Shown one piece after another: positions 13,857 to 22,071 of a stretch of 63,082 bases of DNA (within the stretch, counting starts at the first letter, position 1; each line of letters opens with the position of its first letter). The stretch covers positions 1 through 63,082 of the forward strand of contig DATLZE010000170.1 in assembly GCA_035574195.1 (NCBI GenBank). Direction: 5' to 3'. Made by a program: the position numbers and the translations under genes. This DNA comes from Burkholderiales bacterium (GTDB taxonomy: Bacteria > Pseudomonadota > Gammaproteobacteria > Burkholderiales > SG8-41). The notes beneath the pieces are model-generated. The model saw only the letters and a program-made list of their open reading frames with translations, was not told the origin of the DNA and did no database searches.

Positions 13857-13899
13857 TCGGGGCGTAGCGCAGCCTGGTAGCGTACCGGCATGGGGTGCC
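13857..13899 (+). pseudogene. Left att repeat: 5' half of tRNA-Pro(GGG)
   Basis: 43 bp identical to 21994-22036; diverges within the 3' strand of the anticodon stem and is followed by AGCTTTTTT. Confidence 0.92.
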
Positions 13900-13949
13900 A
13901 GCTTTTTTCGGTCGCTATCGGTTTGATCGCGCGCCGCGATTCCTTCGCG

Positions 13950-14015
13950 GTTTGAAAATTATGCGCCCCCGAAATCGGCCTCTGTTCTACCCGTAGCATC
14001 CCCGAATTTTCAAAC
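13950..14015. repeat. AATTTTCAAAC motif pair at left end (candidate integrase arm sites)
   Basis: Copies at 13950-13960 (minus strand) and 14005-14015 (plus); same 11-mer at 21899 and 21928. Confidence 0.6.
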
Positions 14016-14033
14016 CGGCCGCCGCGTTCCTCG

Positions 14034-14062
14034 TTGACCCTCATACGGGTTTCCCGTATGAT
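14034..14062 (+). promoter_or_regulatory. Sigma70 promoter with overlapping palindromic operator
   Basis: TTGACC-17 bp-TATGAT; perfect inverted repeat TCATACGGG-ttt-CCCGTATGA at 14041-14061. Confidence 0.75.
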
Positions 14063-14069
14063 GCCCGGC

Positions 14070-14273
14070 ATGAACGCGAAGCGGATTCGTGAGATCCGGG
14101 CCCGCCTGGGGCTCACGCAGCGCGAGCTCGGCGAGCTGCTCAACGTGTCGCCGCGCACCGTGCAGGATTGGGAGCAGGGACGCCACGCGCCGCGGAGCTC
14201 GGCGATTCTGCTCCTGGAGCTGGCCGACCGCGGATTGCTGACGCGGGCGCCTCGTCAAGGCGACCGGGCGTGA
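14070..14273 (+). CDS. Xre/Cro-C1 HTH regulator (probably leaderless)
   Basis: IREIRARLGLTQRELGELLNVSPRTVQDWEQG HTH pattern; ATG at the expected +1 of the promoter. Confidence 0.85.
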   Translation: MNAKRIREIRARLGLTQRELGELLNVSPRTVQDWEQGRHAPRSSAILLLELADRGLLTRAPRQGDRA

Positions 14274-14791
14274 CGAGCGACAATTCCAGGCGCGCCAAAG
14301 AGGAGCGCATCCTCAGACGGGCCGCCGCCATTCTCGAGCGCCGCCTACTCGCCCCTCGCGGCCCGAAAATTCACAGCTCTCACGAGGCGAAGCAGTTCGT
14401 CGCGCTCCGCCTCGCGCACGAGCAGCGCGAGGTCATCCTCGCAATCTGGCTGGACGCCGACGGGCGCGTCCTGGCGGTGGAAGAAGCAGCGTTTGGCACG
14501 GTCCACAAGGTGGTTCTGCATCCGCGGGAGCTCGTGCGGAGTGCGCTCCGCCTCAACGCCTGCCGCCTCATCATCGCGCACAATCATCCGGGCGGCTCGG
14601 CGGACTTCTCCAAGAGCGACCGGATTTTGACGGAATCGCTGCGCCACGCCCTGAGTCTCATAGACGTCGAGGTGCTGGATCATCTGCTGATCGGCGAGCG
14701 CGTCGTGTCGCTGGCCGAGATCGAGGCCAGCGAACGCGCCAAGCAGCCGGAGCGCGCAGCACCACCCGAGGCCTTGCACGAGGCGCCATGA
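14270..14791 (+). CDS. RadC-like JAB domain protein
   Basis: Intact JAMM motif HNH-x7-S-x2-D (HNHPGGSADFSKSD), VLDHLLIG; GTG overlaps the xre stop. Confidence 0.88.
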   Translation: MTSDNSRRAKEERILRRAAAILERRLLAPRGPKIHSSHEAKQFVALRLAHEQREVILAIWLDADGRVLAVEEAAFGTVHKVVLHPRELVRSALRLNACRLIIAHNHPGGSADFSKSDRILTESLRHALSLIDVEVLDHLLIGERVVSLAEIEASERAKQPERAAPPEALHEAP

Positions 14792-15486
14792 TCGCGCGCC
14801 GCCGACCGCCAGCCGCAGCCCGTCGCCGGCGCGCGAGGGCCGCAAAGGCTCGCGCAAGGCGCCCCGTATCGCCTGAACGGCCGCCCGCCCGGGTCGCCGC
14901 TGTAATCGCATCGCTGGCGCCCGGGGAGCGTATTTCGTGGTCGCCCGGGCAAGATCCTGATCGGCTCCGAGCTGCGCTGTGGCTTGCGAGCGGGCCCGGA
15001 CGCGCTTGGCGGGTCGAGCGATGGGCGCAGAGCGTCAAGGACGGCAAGGAGCGGCTCGATCTCGCGCGCAACGTGATCGCTCTGGTCGCGAGGATCCGGG
15101 AACTCTACCGCGCAGGCAACGGGCGGCTCGCCGACATCCTGGTCGAACGGGCCGAGCGGATGGTGGAGCGGGCGGGATACCTCAAGCTTTTTGATCTCGA
15201 TTTGCTGCCGCTATGGGAGCAGCAACGACGGGCTGCCTCGCAACCGAGAAGCAAGGTCGTGATGCTTGTCAGGGACGAAATCGCCGCCGCACTGAGCGCG
15301 GGCGTGCAGCTCACGGCTCGGAGGCTGCTCGATTTCATGCAGCAACGCGGGAAAGCGCTCAAGACCAACGATGGCTACGTGGGATTTCTTGATAATCAAT
15401 CTCACGTTATTGGGTATGTACTTTTTCAATCGTATAAAACCTTGGTCTCCCGAGAGAAGAAGAAGATGAGCGCTGGCAGCTTGTAG
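14788..15486 (+). CDS. Hypothetical protein
   Basis: 232-aa ORF coupled to radC by ATGA; AT-richer 3' end; no family recognised; start uncertain. Confidence 0.55.
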   Translation: MIARRRPPAAARRRRARAAKARARRPVSPERPPARVAAVIASLAPGERISWSPGQDPDRLRAALWLASGPGRAWRVERWAQSVKDGKERLDLARNVIALVARIRELYRAGNGRLADILVERAERMVERAGYLKLFDLDLLPLWEQQRRAASQPRSKVVMLVRDEIAAALSAGVQLTARRLLDFMQQRGKALKTNDGYVGFLDNQSHVIGYVLFQSYKTLVSREKKKMSAGSL

Positions 15487-15565
15487 ACAGAACGCCCTCT
15501 GAGTACGCCGGCGGCGTGCGTGCGCGTGTAAATTAGTCTCATCGGCGAACCAAAAAGGACCTCCT

Positions 15566-16252
15566 GTGGGCCGGCGCCTGATCGAATTTCCAGAATATCA
15601 CGCGTGTTTATCTAAGCTCGAGGAGCTCTCTGTCGAATTTGGGAAAACGAGAGACCAGGCGCGCGATCTCGAGGTTCGCCTCGCGAACCTACGCGGCGCG
15701 CGTGTTTCCGCCGCGACCGACGAGGTTGAGGCCGAAGCGACCGCGCTCGTCGCCGGCAACGACGGCGGCGCGCGCGAAGTCGCCCGTCTACGTGATGACC
15801 TTGCGGCGCTCCGCCATCGCGCCCGCGTGCTCGGGCGTGCAGTGCAGCTCCAAGAGATCGCGCTCGAAGCACTTCGCGGCCGACTGAGTGCGCGCGTCGC
15901 GGCAGAGGTTAAAGAGGAGCACCGCGAACTCGCGCGCCGCATCGCGCGCGCCGCGATCGAACTCGCGCGAGCGCTCGAGGCCGAGGCCGCCTTCCGGCGC
16001 GAGCTCTCAGACGGCGGCATCCTGGCGGATGTTCTACCAGCAGCCCAGCTTCCCGGTTTCCGCCTAGCCGCGGAGGGGTCGCGCATTGGCGCCTTCCTCC
16101 TGCGCTTGCTCGGCGCCGGCCTCATCGCTGTGGATGACTTGCCAGACGAGCTCAAAACCCAGGGCGAGGCGCTTCTTCGCGCAGAAGCGGCGCAGCCGGG
16201 GGTTGTTCCCAGATCGCGGCGGGTCTCTCGTCCCTGGTTTTTCGAGACGTAA
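15566..16252 (+). CDS. Hypothetical coiled-coil protein
   Basis: 228 aa, L/A/E/R-rich heptad-like helical sequence; AAAGGA just upstream of GTG. Confidence 0.65.
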   Translation: MGRRLIEFPEYHACLSKLEELSVEFGKTRDQARDLEVRLANLRGARVSAATDEVEAEATALVAGNDGGAREVARLRDDLAALRHRARVLGRAVQLQEIALEALRGRLSARVAAEVKEEHRELARRIARAAIELARALEAEAAFRRELSDGGILADVLPAAQLPGFRLAAEGSRIGAFLLRLLGAGLIAVDDLPDELKTQGEALLRAEAAQPGVVPRSRRVSRPWFFET

Positions 16253-16263
16253 AGACACCCATC

Positions 16264-16749
16264 ATGCCGGGGCGAACACGCGAGCGCGTGAAGGGGCGGA
16301 GGGCACGCGGAAGTTTCGTGGCATTGCCACACGAGTATTTCGAGAGCCCCGAGTATGCAGAACTGTCGCCGCGCGCGGTCAAGGCGCTGCTCGACATCTA
16401 CTGTCAGTTCCGCGGTTCGAACAACGGCCTGTTGACTGCGTCATGGGGCATCATGCGGGCGCGCGGCTGGCGCTCGAAGTCGAACCTTCGAAACGCCGTG
16501 CGAGAGTTGCTCGACCGCGGATGGTTGATTACCACCCGCCGAGGCGGGCGGCACTGCGCGACCTGTTTCGCGGTAACGTTCTTAGGAATAGACGAGTGCG
16601 GCGGGGCGCTCGATATCACGCCGTCGCCCTACCCGTTGCACTTGTGGCGGCGCTCGTGCTCGCTCCGGAAAAATTTTTTTCCTACCCCACCTGTGTTCGA
16701 AGGAAGGCCACCTGCGGGGCAGAATTGCCCCACCGAGAACACCCTGTAG
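16264..16749 (+). CDS. Winged-HTH protein, putative replication initiator
   Basis: FVALPH...NNGLL...GWRSKSNLRNAVRELLDRGWLITTRRGG pattern, which I recognise from proteobacterial prophage/integrated-element HTH proteins. Confidence 0.6.
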   Translation: MPGRTRERVKGRRARGSFVALPHEYFESPEYAELSPRAVKALLDIYCQFRGSNNGLLTASWGIMRARGWRSKSNLRNAVRELLDRGWLITTRRGGRHCATCFAVTFLGIDECGGALDITPSPYPLHLWRRSCSLRKNFFPTPPVFEGRPPAGQNCPTENTL

Positions 16750-16812
16750 CCCGCATATGGTGCAATCGAAGGCATTTTCGCCAAAATTTCGCCCCACCAG
16801 CGGGGTGCAATT
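16685..16812 (+). repeat. Iteron-like direct repeats
   Basis: CCCCACC at 16685, 16728, 16792; CCACCnGCGGGGnnnAATT at 16708-16726 and 16794-16812 (15/19 identical). Confidence 0.5.
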
Positions 16813-16886
16813 CTATATTTACCATGTGCGCGGTGTTTAGCAGCGTAGCGATGATGAACTCTCGGCGTGAAAATGACGCGGTCGCT

Positions 16887-16909
16887 AACGGTGACTATGG
16901 GTCACCGTT
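16887..16909. other. Perfect 9-bp inverted repeat (terminator or operator)
   Basis: AACGGTGAC-tatgg-GTCACCGTT followed by TTCT. Confidence 0.55.
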
Positions 16910-16981
16910 TTCTCGTCCCGGTCCGGGCGCGGCGAGGCGCGTTGTCCGCGCGCCGCAGCGCGCCGCGCACGTGCTCGGACC

Positions 16982-17070
16982 GGAGGGTGGGTTAAAACTT
17001 CGGGGGCTGGGCGCTGGCGACCGTGCGCCCAATCGCGCGCGCGCCGTCGCGAAATTGGCAAGGGGGGGGT
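16982..17070 (+). promoter_or_regulatory. Candidate cos-like packaging region
   Basis: GGGTGGGTTAAAACTTC...GACCGTGCGCCCAA...CGCGAAATT...GGGGGGGG resembles, from memory, the non-coding DNA upstream of terS in HK97-like prophages; unverified. Confidence 0.45.
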
Positions 17071-17088
17071 TGGCAAGGAGTTTCTAAG

Positions 17089-18897
17089 ATGAGCGCTCTC
17101 GGGAAGCTGGTGATCGAGCTCTCGGCTGATACCGTCCAGTTCGCGAGCGACCTCGGCAAAGCCGCCCGCCTCTCCGAGCAGCGGGCGCAGGAGATCTCGA
17201 GGGCGCTCGGCGTTGCGACGGGCGCGTTCGCCTCGTTGACTGCCGCCGCGGCTGCCTTGGCGAAGTCAGCGATCAACGACATGGACGCGCTCAACAAAAT
17301 GTCGCAGCGAGTCGGGGTGTCGGTTGAAGCGCTCTCGAGCCTGAGATACGCCGCGCAGCTCGCCGACGTGAACACGGAGGCGCTCGGCGTCGGCCTGCGG
17401 AAGTTGAGCGTCCACATGCTCGACGCCCAGGCCGGGACGGGCGAGGCGCATGAAGCGTTCCGGGCCCTGGGCGTCGAGGTGAAGAACGCGGACGGCTCGC
17501 TGCGCGGGGCGCATGACGTGCTGCGCGACGTTGCGAATCGCTTCGCCGCGATGCAGGACGGTGCCACCAAAACCGCGTTCGCGGTGCGATTGTTCGGCAA
17601 GAGCGGCTCCGACCTGATCCCGCTGCTGAACCAGGGCGCTGCTGGCCTGGACCTCGCGGCGAAAGAAGCCGAGCGCTTCGGGCTCATCGTGACCGCCGAA
17701 GCCGCCAAGGCAGCGGAAGAATTTAACGACAACCTGACGCGCCTCGGCCGAGCCGCTTCCGCGCTCGGGATCTCGCTCGCCTCGCCGCTGCTGGAGACTC
17801 TGGTCAGCATCACGAATCAACTGCGGGATGCCGCAACCGCCGCAGGCGGCTTCTGGAAGGCGTTGCTCGATCCCGGCATCAGCGGTATCGCCGACCCGGG
17901 GAAGAAGATCCTCGAGCTCGAGGGCAAGCTCGCGAAGCTGAAAAAGCTGCGCGATGAGCTTTCGGTCCCGACGCTCACGAATCGGCTGAATGATCTCGTG
18001 TTCGGCGACGTGCATGACCTCAATCTCCAAATCGCGGCGCTCGAGAAGCAGCTCGCGATTTTGCGGTCCATGCAGGACATCAAGCTCGAGCGCCTCGCGG
18101 TCGAGTCCATTCATCGAGCGAAGGCGCCGCCGCCGCGGCTGCCTGGTGGCGCCAGAAAAGACGCCGAGAACCTCGTGGGGCGCGCCTGGGCGGAAAATCA
18201 GGAGGAGTGGAACCGGATCATGTCCGAGGCCGCCGCCGCGAGCGACAAGTTCAACGCCACCATGCGCGAGCGCGCCTTCTTCGAAAACATGGCCTGGCCG
18301 GGCGTCGAATCGAGCGAGGAGTTCCAGCGTCGCCTGAAGGCGCTGGACGAGCTGCTCGAGCTCGAGGAACGGCATATGCGGCTCATGGCCGGCTTCGACG
18401 AGACCGGCAAAGATCTGAACGAGACGCTCAAACAGCAAACCGACATCGCCCGCGAGCTGGGGCTGAGCTTCAGCTCCGCCTTCGAGGACGCGGCGATCGC
18501 CGGCAAGCGGCTCTCGGAGGTGCTCAAGGGGCTCGCGCAGGATGTCGCCCGCATTGTCTTTCGTCGCAGCGTGACCGAACCCTTGGCGAGCGCGGTCTCG
18601 AGTTTCGCCGGCGACCTGTTTAAAGGCTTCTTTAGCGCCCGGGCGCACGGTGGCGCGGTCGCGCCCGGGCGCGGTTACGTGGTCGGCGAGCGCGGCCCCG
18701 AGCTGTTCGTCCCGAGCACTGCGGGCGAGATCGTGCCGGCGCACGAGCTCGGGGCGACCACGATCGTAAATCTGGCGGTCAACCTAACATCGCTCGATCC
18801 GCGGGGCGCGGCGGCTGTCATCGCGCAGAACGCGCCCGTCGTGCTCGACATCGTGCGCCGCGAGGCTCACAAGCGACTGCGGGCGAGCCCGGTCTAG
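17089..18897 (+). CDS. Phage tail tape measure protein (602 aa)
   Basis: AAGGAG RBS; MSALGKLVIELSADT N-terminus, Ala-rich helical body, lambdoid-type C-terminus ARAHGGAV...YVVGERGPELFVP. Confidence 0.88.
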   Translation: MSALGKLVIELSADTVQFASDLGKAARLSEQRAQEISRALGVATGAFASLTAAAAALAKSAINDMDALNKMSQRVGVSVEALSSLRYAAQLADVNTEALGVGLRKLSVHMLDAQAGTGEAHEAFRALGVEVKNADGSLRGAHDVLRDVANRFAAMQDGATKTAFAVRLFGKSGSDLIPLLNQGAAGLDLAAKEAERFGLIVTAEAAKAAEEFNDNLTRLGRAASALGISLASPLLETLVSITNQLRDAATAAGGFWKALLDPGISGIADPGKKILELEGKLAKLKKLRDELSVPTLTNRLNDLVFGDVHDLNLQIAALEKQLAILRSMQDIKLERLAVESIHRAKAPPPRLPGGARKDAENLVGRAWAENQEEWNRIMSEAAAASDKFNATMRERAFFENMAWPGVESSEEFQRRLKALDELLELEERHMRLMAGFDETGKDLNETLKQQTDIARELGLSFSSAFEDAAIAGKRLSEVLKGLAQDVARIVFRRSVTEPLASAVSSFAGDLFKGFFSARAHGGAVAPGRGYVVGERGPELFVPSTAGEIVPAHELGATTIVNLAVNLTSLDPRGAAAVIAQNAPVVLDIVRREAHKRLRASPV

Positions 18898-18907
18898 AGG
18901 GGGCGCA

Positions 18908-19192
18908 ATGAAGGCCGAACTGCTGGAAGCCCTGAGACGCAGAGAAGAACGGATCGAGGTGGCCGGCCACGTGCTCATCGTGCGCGAGCCCGCGGCCGGC
19001 GACCAGCTCGATGATCTGTCCAGCGACCCCGACGCGGCCTACAAGTTGATCGTGGCTTGCACATACGACGCCGACGGCAACCGGGTTTTCACCGATGACG
19101 ACATCCCCGCCCTCAAGGCGGCCTCGCGCGGTTACGTGAAGCAGATCATCGAAATTCTCAACCGGATGCTCGTCGAGGATCGCAATGGGTGA
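18908..19192 (+). CDS. Tail assembly chaperone-like protein 1
   Basis: VREP...DADGNRVFTDDD pattern resembling Phage_TAC_1-type chaperones. Confidence 0.65.
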   Translation: MKAELLEALRRREERIEVAGHVLIVREPAAGDQLDDLSSDPDAAYKLIVACTYDADGNRVFTDDDIPALKAASRGYVKQIIEILNRMLVEDRNG

Positions 19193-19518
19193 GACCTCGC
19201 TCTTTTCCGAGCAGATGCTCCAGAACGCGGCACGGAGCAGGCGATTCGTGCAGTCTCTACGGGAAGCCCTCGGGCGTCGGGCCGACGAGATGCAGCGATT
19301 GTCGGCGGGGTTATCGCGCCGCGAGGCGCGCGTTCAGATCGGCGGGCAGATTTTGTGCGTGCGCGAGCCCGCGGCCGGCGACCAGCTCGATGATCTGTCC
19401 AGCGACCCCGACGCGGCCTACAAGTTGATCGTGACTTGCACATACGACGCCGACGGCAACCGGGTTTTCACCGATGACGACATCCCCGCCCTCAAGGCGG
19501 CCTCGCGCGGCTACGTGA
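18979..19518 (+). repeat. 161-bp direct repeat pair (18979-19139 and 19358-19518)
   Basis: Only 2 mismatches (19055 G/19434 A; 19132 T/19511 C). Confidence 0.95.
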
Positions 19519-19610
19519 GGCGGCTCGTCGAGAACATCAGCCGGGTGCTTATCTCGAGGACGTTTACCTATGCTCACCGTCGAGGTGCGCGGCCTGCGCG
19601 AGCTGCGTAA
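19185..19610 (+). CDS. Tail assembly chaperone-like protein 2 (N-terminally extended paralogue)
   Basis: Same core as ORF 18908 plus a helical N-terminal extension; overlaps both neighbours. Confidence 0.55.
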   Translation: MGETSLFSEQMLQNAARSRRFVQSLREALGRRADEMQRLSAGLSRREARVQIGGQILCVREPAAGDQLDDLSSDPDAAYKLIVTCTYDADGNRVFTDDDIPALKAASRGYVRRLVENISRVLISRTFTYAHRRGARPARAA

Positions 19611-20070
19611 CGCCCTGCTGGCGCTGCCGCGCCGCATCGCCCGGCCGCTGCTCAATCGCAGCCTGATGGTAGGCGGGCGGCTGATCCGAGATGAAGCGCG
19701 GGCCCGGGTACCGCTGCTGCGCGTGCCTGACCGGCGGCGCGTGCGCGGCGCGCTGCGGCGCGCGATTCACGCCGGCGTGGCGCGGCCCCAGGGTCACGCC
19801 GCGAGTGTGTGGGTGCGCGTGCGCCCCCTCACGCGCGGCCAGATCGCCGCTTTCAAGCGCAGGGCGGGCGCAGGCGCTCAAAATCCTCTCGATCCGTTTT
19901 ACTGGAGATGGCTGGAGTTCGGCACGTCGAAGATGGCCGCGCGCCCGTTCCTGCGCCCCGCCTTCGAGGCGAAAAAAGAACAGGCCGCGCGCGCAATCAT
20001 CGCCGATCTACGCCCTCGGATTCTCGCCGAGGCTGAAAAACTCGGGCGACGAACAATGGGGGGCTTATGA
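19570..20070 (+). CDS. HK97 gp10-family tail/neck completion protein
   Basis: VEVRGLRELRNAL N-terminus; YWRWLEFGTSKMAARPFLRPAF signature. Confidence 0.85.
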   Translation: MLTVEVRGLRELRNALLALPRRIARPLLNRSLMVGGRLIRDEARARVPLLRVPDRRRVRGALRRAIHAGVARPQGHAASVWVRVRPLTRGQIAAFKRRAGAGAQNPLDPFYWRWLEFGTSKMAARPFLRPAFEAKKEQAARAIIADLRPRILAEAEKLGRRTMGGL

Positions 20071-20291
20071 GACGCCCGCGGCGCACCATCAAACGCGAGT
20101 CGCTCGCGCTCTACCGCGGCCGGCCGCTGGTGCTGATCGTGCCGCCGATCTGTGATGTCATCAGAATTCGCGAAAAAGGCCGCCGAACGGCTTTCGAAAT
20201 TGACCTGTTGAGCGTCTACGACCTCGCCGCGCGCAAGGCCGCAGCGCAGTTGCTTGAACAACGTGGCCGACGCGCAGGGAAAATGCCGTGA
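20067..20291 (+). CDS. Small basic hypothetical protein
   Basis: 74 aa, coupled to both neighbours (ATGA, GTGA). Confidence 0.55.
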   Translation: MRRPRRTIKRESLALYRGRPLVLIVPPICDVIRIREKGRRTAFEIDLLSVYDLAARKAAAQLLEQRGRRAGKMP

Positions 20292-20488
20292 ACTGCCCGA
20301 TTTGCCAGTACCCGCACAGTCACGTGTATCTGACGAAGTCCAACAGCGAGACCGTCCGGCGCCGGCGCGAATGCTTGCGGTGCAAGCACCGCTGGACGAC
20401 GTACGAAACGATGGAGCAGGTGATCGCCAAGTTGGCCGAGATCAGGCGGGTCATCTCCGTGTTGCAGGACCAGTGCGGGGGGGCGTAG
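20288..20488 (+). CDS. Stand-alone zinc-ribbon protein (NrdR N-terminal / Ogr-Delta-like)
   Basis: C-x2-C-x22-C-x2-C with RRRRECLRC...WTTYE; no ATP-cone domain. Confidence 0.7.
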   Translation: MNCPICQYPHSHVYLTKSNSETVRRRRECLRCKHRWTTYETMEQVIAKLAEIRRVISVLQDQCGGA

Positions 20489-20489
20489 C

Positions 20490-21620
20490 ATGTTGCGCGT
20501 GGGGAGGCCGCGGAAGAAGGCGAAGGATCTGCCGCTTGGCGTGTACTCGGTCAAGGGGCGCTTCTACGTGCGCCCCGTCAACGCGGAAATGCGCCGGGTG
20601 TTCGCGACTACGTTCCCGGGCCGGAAATGTGCGCCGCTGGGCGCCGACAAGCACGAGGCCCGCAAGCGGTGGGTTCAGTTGTTCGTCACCGATCGCCCGG
20701 AATCCGCCCAGGCCGGCACCGTCGCCGAGCTGATCGAGCGCTACGAGCGGGACATCATCCCCACCCTGCACGAGCGCACCGGCAGGGACCGCAAAGGCTA
20801 CTGTAAGCGGCTGCGGGATGCCCTGGGGGGCTGGAAATACGCCAGGAGCGAAGCGGAGGCCGCTACCGGGCCGTTCCTGCGTTCCATCCACATCACGCGC
20901 TATCTGCGCGACCAGGAGGCCGCTGGGCGCCCTGTGGCGGGCAACAAGGAGATCCGCTGCCTATCCCGCATCTTTAGGCTCGCAAAGACCCTGTGGGGCT
21001 ATACCGAGTACAACCCCTGCCTCCAGATCGAGCACAACATCGAGACCCCGCGGGGCGTCTACGTGACCGATGACATGTTCCGCCGGGTCTACGACAAGGC
21101 CCCCGCGGTGCTCCAGTGCATGATGGACCTGGCGCAGATGGTCGGCGCGCGTCGCGGCATGATTCTGAAGTTGACGCTCGCCGACGTGACACCCGAGGGG
21201 CTGCGCGTCACGCTCAACAAGCGCAAGCGCACCGAGGCCGTGCGCCGGCAGATTGTGCGTTGGACCGACGACCTGCGGGCTGTGATTGACCGGGCGCTCG
21301 AGCTGCGGGCAAAGGTGCGGGGTGGACAGCGGGAGATCAAGGATCTGGACACCGCGCCCCTGTTCCTCAACCGCTTGGGCAAGGCGTTCAGTGAGACGGG
21401 GTTTAACAGCATGTGGCAACGCGCACGCGCCGCAGCGGGTTTCGAGGCGCACGAAATTCACTTCCACGACCTCAAGGCGAAATCCGTGAGCGACAGCCCG
21501 AACGAGATTGACGCCATGAACCGCGGCGGCCACCTGGACCTCAGAACCACCAGGCGCATCTACCGCCGCAAGCCGATCGAGGTCGTTCCGCTGCCGCGGG
21601 TGAGCGGCAAGCCCGCCTGA
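20490..21620 (+). CDS. int: Tyrosine recombinase/integrase
   Basis: GARRGMILKL (R), FHDLKAK box, GGH...TTRRIY (H, Y); adjacent to the right att repeat. Confidence 0.9.
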   Translation: MLRVGRPRKKAKDLPLGVYSVKGRFYVRPVNAEMRRVFATTFPGRKCAPLGADKHEARKRWVQLFVTDRPESAQAGTVAELIERYERDIIPTLHERTGRDRKGYCKRLRDALGGWKYARSEAEAATGPFLRSIHITRYLRDQEAAGRPVAGNKEIRCLSRIFRLAKTLWGYTEYNPCLQIEHNIETPRGVYVTDDMFRRVYDKAPAVLQCMMDLAQMVGARRGMILKLTLADVTPEGLRVTLNKRKRTEAVRRQIVRWTDDLRAVIDRALELRAKVRGGQREIKDLDTAPLFLNRLGKAFSETGFNSMWQRARAAAGFEAHEIHFHDLKAKSVSDSPNEIDAMNRGGHLDLRTTRRIYRRKPIEVVPLPRVSGKPA

Positions 21621-21893
21621 TATATGCTGCTTACCCTACGAGATCTCTACGAAAGCGGCGGCTCGCAAATCGTCGAGGCCGATGGGAATTCGGCCGGGAT
21701 TGCGGTCGTGAGCGGGATCGGCGCCGCGGTTTTCCTCGCCGAAGGCGAGAGTAATGGAGTCGCGGCGGTCTCCGGCGTTGGCGCGGCGCTGTGGAATGCC
21801 GCTGGCGCGGGCGATGGGGTCGCGGCGGTCTCCGGCGTTGGCGCGGCTCCGCGGAGGCCTCCGCCAGAAGGGTGAGCGGCAAGCCCGCCTGAT
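21598..21893 (+). repeat. 24-bp perfect direct repeats (21598-21621, 21870-21893)
   Basis: GGGTGAGCGGCAAGCCCGCCTGAT, the integrase 3' end, occurs twice 272 bp apart. Confidence 0.95.
21624..21875 (+). CDS. Short Gly/Ala/Val repeat ORF (possible virion-protein fragment)
   Basis: Three 20-aa repeats (G[IV]A[VA]VSG[IV]GAA); 29-bp identical blocks at 21759 and 21819; stop codon lies in the second 24-bp repeat. Confidence 0.45.
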   Translation: MLLTLRDLYESGGSQIVEADGNSAGIAVVSGIGAAVFLAEGESNGVAAVSGVGAALWNAAGAGDGVAAVSGVGAAPRRPPPEG

Positions 21894-21894
21894 G

Positions 21895-21940
21895 CCCGAA
21901 TTTTCAAACTTTCTGGAAAACGCCCGAAATTTTCAAACTT
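21895..21940 (+). repeat. Tandem AATTTTCAAAC motifs at right end
   Basis: Copies at 21899-21909 and 21928-21938; CCCGAATTTTCAAAC at 21895 is identical to 14001-14015. Confidence 0.65.
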
Positions 21941-21977
21941 TTCCGATTGTCAGCCCATCGGCAACCCATTGAACCTT

Positions 21978-21986
21978 TGTTATAAT
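21978..21986 (+). promoter_or_regulatory. Element-borne extended -10 promoter for tRNA-Pro
   Basis: TGtTATAAT 8 nt upstream of the intact tRNA. Confidence 0.7.
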
Positions 21987-21994
21987 TCTGCTCT

Positions 21995-22071
21995 CGGGGC
22001 GTAGCGCAGCCTGGTAGCGTACCGGCATGGGGTGCCGGTGGTCGTGAGTTCAAATCTCACCGCCCCGACCA
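21995..22071 (+). tRNA. tRNA-Pro(GGG), intact copy
   Basis: CGGGGCG/CGCCCCG acceptor stem, CCGGC-ATGGGGT-GCCGG anticodon arm, GTTCAAAT T-loop, CCA. Confidence 0.97.

Follow-up and report, generated by a model that had tools for sequence, protein, structure and literature searches.

The window analysed here is the 63,082-nucleotide contig DATLZE010000170.1 (C170) of an uncultured Burkholderiales bacterium (assembly GCA_035574195.1), a metagenome-assembled genome (MAG) of 3.1 Mb in 206 contigs. It harbors an integrative element of 8,137 bp, located at a tRNA-Pro(GGG) gene, in which the only recognised virion genes encode a tail tape measure protein (TMP), two tail assembly chaperones (TAC) and an HK97-gp10-like protein, less than a full virion, packaging and lysis gene set. 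By analogy with known systems, the element is interpreted as a candidate phage satellite, a mobile element in its integrated state that would depend on a helper phage, that would put its TMP, TAC and gp10-like proteins into the tail of a helper phage and that would derive from a mosaic pool of small tRNA-targeting islands. We give this reading a probability of about 0.5.

Insertion at the tRNA-Pro(GGG) gene

The element is bracketed by a direct repeat of 43 bp with 100% identity (13857-13899 and 21994-22036), its length being the spacing from repeat to repeat. The left repeat lies directly after the conserved pheS-pheT-ihfA-merR block, behind a chromosomal TATAAT. At the right end, both the 5' half of the intact tRNA-Pro(GGG) and a TG-extended TATAAT promoter-like site (21958-21986, from a promoter scan) are supplied by the element. 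The G+C content of the element (63-67%) is slightly lower than that of the contig (about 70%).

13857..13899, no strand: attL, the displaced 5' half (43 nt) of tRNA-Pro(GGG), a 100% repeat of 21994-22036
21994..22071, + strand: attR (21994-22036) within the intact tRNA-Pro(GGG) (21995-22071), from the repeat match and a tRNA call

Both flanks were joined in silico and searched against 32 other genomes of the genus. The empty site is contiguous, with merR directly followed by tRNA-Pro, in at least 16 of these 32, and none of them holds a homologue of the TMP, indicating that the 8.1 kb are a real, lineage-specific insertion. The element is a genuine integrative element and, being absent from congeners, it was acquired recently. 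The perfect repeats and the empty site, together with an intact tyrosine integrase, bear out the att-flanked element of 8,137 bp proposed in an initial annotation of the window.

The tRNA-Pro(GGG) gene is an integration hotspot in the genus, where extra copies of its 3' half (35-57 bp) occur, some of them arrayed (genomes G003, G022, G031 and others). Unlike these, the element duplicates the 5' 43 nt of the tRNA gene. Between the two repeat types there is an overlap of about 12 nt, located at the anticodon loop, and this segment is probably the crossover core.

A tail-core operon coupled to the integrase gene

The tail genes form a packed run that continues into a zinc-ribbon gene and the integrase gene, to which the tail-core operon is transcriptionally coupled:

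17089..18897, + strand: tail tape measure protein, 602 aa (PF10145, score 34.9 against a cut-off of 33.2; TIGR01760, 38.6 against 28.8; many TMP PHROGs)
18908..19192, + strand: tail assembly chaperone, copy 1, 94 aa (phrog_344, E-value 4e-10; 55% identical to the TAC of contig L071, described below)
19185..19610, + strand: tail assembly chaperone, copy 2, 141 aa (phrog_344, E-value 2e-8)
19570..20070, + strand: HK97-gp10-family neck/tail-completion protein, 166 aa (TIGR01725, 51.3 bits against a cut-off of 30.8; phrog_5, E-value 5e-19)
20067..20291, + strand: o74, small protein coupled to gp10 by an ATGA overlap (open reading frame (ORF) call)
20288..20488, + strand: NrdR-type zinc-ribbon protein (PF22811, E-value 1e-13)
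20490..21620, + strand: tyrosine integrase (PF00589 and phrog_1)

The TMP aligns over its full length with the TMPs of its relatives. The second TAC, a 37-aa leader followed by a full second TAC domain, starts from a separate ATG in the +1 frame rather than arising by a -1 frameshift. In this it differs from the lambda G/GT chaperones, two products that a programmed -1 frameshift yields from overlapping ORFs upstream of the TMP gene, whereas the TAC genes of the element lie downstream of it and have separate starts. Over 192 nt (18979-19170 and 19358-19549) the two TAC genes are 93.8% identical and their flanks are far more diverged, a pattern that suggests recent gene conversion or partial duplication. 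The gp10-like protein matches the PHROG annotated as 'tail completion or Neck1', and it also scores 19.7 with PF04883, just under the cut-off of 21.4. Neither the TAC nor the gp10-like proteins gave a significant match in the PDB, and o74 matched no family in Pfam, PHROGs, NCBIfam or PADLOC.

In a siphovirus tail, the three recognised kinds of protein are internal or capping parts, namely the ruler with its chaperone and, at the head-proximal end, the completion protein. Unless another phage provides tube and tip, they cannot build a tail. Capsid, portal, terminase, tube, tip and lysis genes gave no Pfam, PHROG or NCBIfam match in any ORF of the element, four of which (o232, o228, o74 and o83) stayed unassigned, and tblastn with E-values up to 5 recovered no remnants of capsid or primase genes. 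The initial annotation had listed the same gene set (int, xre, radC, zinc-ribbon, TMP, two chaperones and gp10-like) and the same missing functions, and both lists agree with the domain searches.

Relatives of the tail module

Among 5.8 billion proteins, TMPs with more than 45% identity over the full length were found only on two Logan contigs, L071 (10.9 kb; 55%) and L072 (10.7 kb; 50%). A third relative, with a TMP 39% identical to that of the window, is an island beside tRNA-Ser in a JGI metagenome (L172, with L171). We know of no earlier description of L071, L072 or L172. Their gene orders are as follows (MCP, major capsid protein; lengths in aa):

L071, 1-10944: 153-aa gene, MCP (373), 232, 110, 66, TMP, TAC (94), 76, gp10 (166), 71-aa gene on the opposite strand, integrase, three small genes, HNH, primase
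L072, 1-10681: D5_N primase, 145, MCP (374), six small genes, TMP, integrase, small genes, HTH_17, HNH
L172, 1-8435, and L171, 1-3216: integrase, radC, 280-aa gene, alpA-like, o161-like, four small genes, MCP (455), 129-aa gene, TMP (653), AT-rich non-coding DNA

L071 repeats the order of the window, TMP-TAC-x-gp10 and then an integrase, with identities of 55% for the TMP, 55% for the TAC and 68-70% for the gp10-like protein. Between both tail modules dN/dS (the ratio of nonsynonymous to synonymous divergence) is 0.27-0.34 at a dS of about 0.9-1.3 and, as judged from these alignments, the TMP-TAC-gp10 module is under purifying selection. The integrases of L071 and L072 are unrelated to that of the window, and both contigs carry primase, HNH and MCP genes, none of which occur in the window element.

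The two Logan contigs are related to each other in their MCP (63% identity), TMP (53%), HNH protein (59%) and the gene preceding the MCP (60%). At about 10.8 kb, each has the gene order of the other in circularly permuted form, and the intergenic lengths at the joined ends agree (108 versus 118 bp and 186 versus 222 bp). No terminal overlaps were found; from the permuted order and the matching junctions, they look like complete circles of about 10.8 kb. Both encode an HK97-fold MCP and a TMP of about 600 aa and are devoid of terminase, portal, tube, tip or lysis genes.

TMPs with 37-44% identity occur in complete siphophages (L073, L076, L174, L220, L221, L222 and many IMG/VR loci), where the canonical order is connector, head-closure, gp10, terminator, tube, TAC, TMP and tip. 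The closest of these phage TMPs are those of the uncultured lambda-like siphophages L073, L076 and L174 (612-614 aa; 44% identity over 543 aa, 58-63% in the N-terminal third), complete phages with tube and G/T chaperone genes before the TMP gene and M-L-K-I-J tip genes after it. The order TMP-TAC-gp10 can not be reached from the canonical one by deletion or by rotation of a circle. That the window and L071 both keep it suggests an arrangement under maintenance. The earlier argument that a single deletion of a normal phage would not give TMP-TAC-TAC-gp10 therefore holds, the order being rearranged with respect to all complete phages examined. Likewise, homologues are not confined to complete prophages, since the three closest TMPs, and a fourth at 39% identity, belong to integrase elements of 9-11 kb.

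Two further arrangements were observed. A 5,136-bp contig of Zoogloea sp. LCSB751 (L078, NZ_MWUM01000054.1) encodes an 856-aa TMP and, directly behind it, a gene of the gp10 family that begins within the stop of the TMP gene, a further instance of gp10 placed after the TMP, on a contig too short to show its surroundings. In Hydrocarboniphaga effusa AP103 (L085 and L086; NZ_AKGD01000001.1, 343560-363976 and 140028-160444) an element has genes for TerS and TerL, for a fusion of protease and MCP, and for portal, gp10, terminator, tube and TMP (663 aa), past which there are only a 150-aa structural gene, an integrase and tRNA-Leu, without tail-tip genes. The two Hydrocarboniphaga loci are 100% identical over 20.4 kb, flanks included, pointing either to a segmental duplication or to an artefact of the assembly.

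Backbone genes and mosaic composition

All genes of the element are on the + strand and all ORFs show the coding pattern GC3>GC1>GC2 (G+C content at the three codon positions). Stop and start codons overlap at radC/o232, gp10/o74 and o74/zinc-ribbon, in line with the initial description of the ORFs as intact and often stop/start coupled. Besides the tail-core run, the element comprises the following features (HTH, helix-turn-helix):

14034..14273, + strand: xre-type HTH regulator (HTH_3, PF01381, E-value 2e-11)
14270..14791, + strand: RadC-like JAB-domain protein (PF04002, E-value 6e-33)
14788..15486, + strand: o232, with coding-type GC3 and a start that overlaps the radC stop (ATGA)
15566..16252, + strand: o228, conserved long three-helix coiled-coil protein, from its homologue family and model
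16264..16749, + strand: o161, predicted winged-helix DNA-binding protein (structure model, pLDDT 79; homologues at 56-65% identity)
16750..17088, no strand: non-coding gap of 340 bp ahead of the tail genes, where an AAGGAG ribosome site precedes the TMP ATG by 8 nt
21624..21875, + strand: o83, repeat-rich ORF of 83 aa within a 272-bp unit

The true start of xre is probably the ATG at 14070, downstream of a promoter-like site at 14034-14062 (promoter scan). The radC ORF is open from 14168, and the GTG at 14270 overlaps the xre stop; its product is 37% identical to the RadC of the L172 island. For o232, no match was obtained in Pfam, PHROGs, NCBIfam, PADLOC or IMG/VR, and a search of 400 genomes from the order gave no homologue either. 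In turn, o228 belongs to a family of about 295 homologues of the same length (180-240 aa) among 1.84 billion representatives and is modelled with confidence (pLDDT 90.5) as a coiled coil of three helices, for which the PDB gave no significant match and Pfam, PHROGs, NCBIfam and PADLOC none.

The o161 product, previously labelled an HTH rep-type gene, does model as a winged helix, and its model gave weak PDB matches to the CodY DNA-binding domain, ScpB and the RepA N-terminal domain. Its homologues at 56-65% identity follow alpA in small integrase islands (L181/L182), and the homologue in L172 (37% identity) is likewise placed. From the model, o161 is a possible initiator or regulator; the 'rep' part of the label is unproven, the structure matches being too weak to decide for a replication initiator. 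The zinc-ribbon protein is possibly a directionality factor or a regulator. The integrase has full-length homologues with up to 86% identity. At 21598-21893, an exact 24-bp duplication of the integrase 3' end (21598-21621 and 21870-21893, 100%) bounds the 272-bp unit, and the G/A/V-rich repeats of o83 arise from internal 58-bp repeats at 83% identity. A PADLOC scan of the element gave no defence genes beyond generic HTH matches.

The zinc-ribbon and integrase genes form a conserved module, with the zinc-ribbon gene directly upstream of int in L179, L180, L216 and L217. An island of about 10 kb in ENA/JGI metagenomes (L178-L180) occupies the same pheST-ihfA-merR-tRNA-Pro(GGG) locus and has the same zinc-ribbon gene and a 79%-identical integrase that faces the tRNA 3' end, together with a resolvase, an HTH_17 protein, a D5_N primase of 908 aa and four genes of unknown function. 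The 21 kb examined around it contained no second att copy. In phage-like regions, more distant relatives of the integrase stand at the end of the early operon, with early genes and not tail genes upstream of the zinc-ribbon-int pair. On these comparisons, the element is a mosaic of the integration module of a primase island, an L172-like radC/winged-helix backbone and an L071-like tail-core module.

Comparison with known satellites

Satellites that provide their own tape measure have been described. All PLE, elements that resemble phage-inducible chromosomal islands, encode tmp and tac, and PLE11 encodes a hub protein as well (Mathur, Boyd et al., Nature 2026; PMC12987554). PLE virions contain the satellite TMP and exclude that of ICP1, their tails are about 10 nm shorter, and deletion of the PLE tmp lowers transduction by 96-99.9% (PMC12987554). 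A further product of PLE11, the 80-aa protein Rta, blocks the helper TMP, and tmp genes are drawn in PLE-like elements and in those phage-inducible chromosomal islands that form capsids (cf-PICI) (PMC12987554). In addition, 224 putative E. coli satellites with an MCP, a decoration protein, a TMP and a baseplate part have been reported (Barth, Dunham and Seed 2023; PMC10448857), as have the EPIPs of Mycolicibacterium, with a TMP and altered tail lengths (PMC12822802), and mini integrative entities with an MCP only (PMC13669383). The initial annotation had proposed a new satellite class on the premise that the action of satellites is limited to heads or to the borrowing of complete tails. The PLE tail work has made this premise out of date (PMC12987554), and the claim of a new class is not supported, since chimeric tails have already been demonstrated for PLE, and cf-PICIs, EPIPs and putative satellites of E. 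coli are reported to have TMPs.

The window element resembles PLE in being an integrated, satellite-type island without a capsid protein gene and with its own tmp and tac cluster, and by analogy it would work like PLE. PLE, in contrast, have a serine recombinase, a RepA_N initiator, a lytic myovirus as host phage and the baseplate hub BhuB, whereas the window element has a tyrosine integrase at a tRNA gene, lacks a recognised replicon, has parts of siphovirus type and, in place of a hub, encodes a gp10-type tail-completion protein. Of the PLE hallmarks, the integrase proved to be of the PF00589 tyrosine type and no RepA_N or other replicon match was found in the element. The cf-PICI set (capsid, portal, protease, terminase/HNH, head-tail connector, alpA and pri-rep) had no match in any ORF and left no tblastn remnants at E-values up to 5. 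As for the hallmarks of P4-like satellites, a D5_N-type primase (alpha) and the capsid-size genes sid, psu and delta, the element has no D5_N/DUF5906 match, a domain that its relatives L072 and L178 do have.

EPIPs, cf-PICIs and the E. coli satellites are, like the window element, small, with a tape measure and few other tail genes, and many of them are integrated at tRNA genes with tyrosine integrases. However, they also carry capsid genes (an MCP with a decoration protein or scaffold), EPIPs and cf-PICIs have packaging or connector genes as well, and none has been reported with a gp10-type tail-completion gene in a tail-only set. The satellites that combine MCP and TMP, of the E. coli phi92 type and the EPIPs, differ from the window element in the same respect, the latter having no MCP. 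Since the defining features of each are missing, the element is not a PLE, a cf-PICI, a P4 or an EPIP. It is best described as a siphovirus-type, capsid-less variant, in an uncultured host, of the known 'satellite with its own tape measure', for which a satellite reading is plausible and partly supported.

Proposed mechanism

The insertion, the gene identities, the conserved gene order and the purifying selection on the module were observed directly; helper dependence, chimeric-tail assembly and packaging are what we infer from them, and the following course is proposed. During development of a siphovirus helper whose tail tip is of the lambda type, the element would excise at the core in the tRNA-Pro anticodon loop. 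Its TMP, held by its own TACs, would load onto the tip complex of the helper and template the polymerisation of the helper tube protein, and the gp10-like protein of the element would then close the tail. The resulting chimeric tails, of about 90 nm, would carry element DNA in helper-made heads and/or divert tail assembly from the helper. Tape measure proteins set tail length at about 1.5 angstrom per residue, from which 602 aa would give about 90 nm, versus about 120 nm for the TMP of a siphophage found in the same MAG (see below).

A more far-reaching version groups the window element with L071/L072, with L172 and with the element of Hydrocarboniphaga as an undescribed lineage of proteobacterial siphophage satellites, in which the window element would be a functional, tail-core-only satellite that makes chimeric tails on the tip and tube of a helper. 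The lineage would then form a graded series, from head, tube and TMP (Hydrocarboniphaga) through MCP and TMP (L071/L072 and L172) to TMP, TAC and tail-completion protein (window), with the tape measure kept longest. On this version, by analogy with Rta, o74 might in addition be a small inhibitor of the helper TMP; alternatively, an own TMP might serve to evade TMP-directed superinfection exclusion in helper lysogens. This version, the series included, is put forward tentatively and we hold it to be rather unlikely.

Candidate helper and alternative explanations

A possible partner phage is present in the same MAG. Contig C74 (31,250 bp) holds a transposable siphophage of the Mu-like kind, encoding MuA, MuB, Mu F, Mu portal and tube proteins, an 802-aa TMP with a lambda C-terminal domain (Tape_meas_lam_C) and homologues of M, L, K, I and J, the contig ending inside the J gene. 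The C74 tip proteins M/L/K/I/J share 49-70% identity with their L073 counterparts, and among phage TMPs that of L073 is nearest to the TMP of the window (44%). From these similarities, C74 is a candidate donor of tip and tube and no more; as a demonstrable helper it was rejected as unproven. The MAG contains no second TMP of the window lineage and no L071-type capsid.

Several observations weigh against a helper-dependent satellite. The C74 TMP aligns with that of the window at 25% identity and only over its C-terminal 187 aa, and C74 shares no DNA with the element, including the gap at 16750-17088, so that no helper is identified; moreover, both contigs are joined by binning, which is no proof of the same cell. 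The element has no primase, helicase, terS or recognisable pac/cos site. A tail-only make-up is seen in the window element alone, and L071, L072 and L172 each have a major capsid gene, making the tail-only content a single case and a possible deletion derivative. The initial annotation had suggested looking for the same compact gene set at other att sites, and homology searches of genomes and metagenomes returned none: close siblings were absent from IMG/VR (TMP, gp10, o161, o228, o232 and L071-capsid queries), from 185k species genomes (gp10), JGI metagenomes (TMP), INPHARED phages and PLSDB plasmids, and from 60 relatives and the 400 genomes of the order. Of the earlier proposal of a satellite that builds tails on its own TMP with the heads and tubes of a helper, what stands is a real element with an order conserved in L071 and under purifying selection; the tail-only content on which it also relied recurs in none of the relatives.

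A first alternative is a dead or decaying derivative, namely a capsid-plus-TMP satellite of the L071/L172 type that lost its capsid and replication genes by deletion or recombination and is non-transmissible, with ORFs that have not yet decayed. All relatives of the TMP lineage carry an MCP, the architecture has been seen once and the element has neither replicon nor packaging gene; in L172, which shares radC and the o161-like gene, the MCP and four small genes sit between the o161-like gene and the TMP, where the window has only 340 bp. Yet that gap holds no remnant of a capsid gene (tblastn, E-values up to 5), and there is no pseudogene or frameshift in the element, where all ORFs are full length compared to their homologues and have coding-type GC3. 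Perfect att repeats and an intact integrase also speak against decay, the absence from congeners marks a recent arrival, and capsid-less satellites such as PLE are functional (PMC12987554). A decaying derivative is accordingly regarded as the principal competing explanation, one that is possible and on the unlikely side.

The tail proteins could instead be weapons. In a tail-assembly interference island, TMP, TAC and gp10 would act as dominant-negative decoys that poison the tails of siphophages, whether infecting or resident, and protect the host population, and packaging of the element itself would not be needed. Tail assembly is a known target, both of the Tai systems (PMC11364771) and of the Rta of PLE11 (PMC12987554); a module without tube and tip genes acts only on the parts of another phage, and a duplicated TAC could titrate helper components. 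However, the PADLOC scan gave no defence match, the same module lies in L071 beside the capsid and primase genes of a particle-forming element, and the long-term conservation of a full-length TMP and a tail-completion protein fits productive assembly better, so that this explanation appears improbable.

That the element is an ordinary defective prophage, the remnant of a temperate siphophage after deletions, is very improbable: all three tail proteins do have homologues in complete phages and an o161 homologue occurs alongside head genes in the Hydrocarboniphaga element, but deletion or rotation of the canonical order can not give TMP-TAC-TAC-gp10, the derived order is kept in L071, phages with this integrase family have early rather than tail genes upstream of the zinc-ribbon-int pair, and no gene of the element is broken.

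Significance

The value of the present case is limited by its host, an uncultured MAG, and by the lack of an identified helper. Annotation pipelines are likely to label islands of this kind 'incomplete prophage'. Whether the manipulation of tail assembly is a general strategy of satellites is a question that came up with the PLE work, on the basis of one myovirus system and of gene maps (PMC12987554). If the satellite reading is true, a capsid-less, tRNA-integrated element from a genome of betaproteobacterial type would extend that strategy to siphoviruses and to the head-proximal end of the tail, and would suggest that the tape measure is a recurrent target of satellite takeover.

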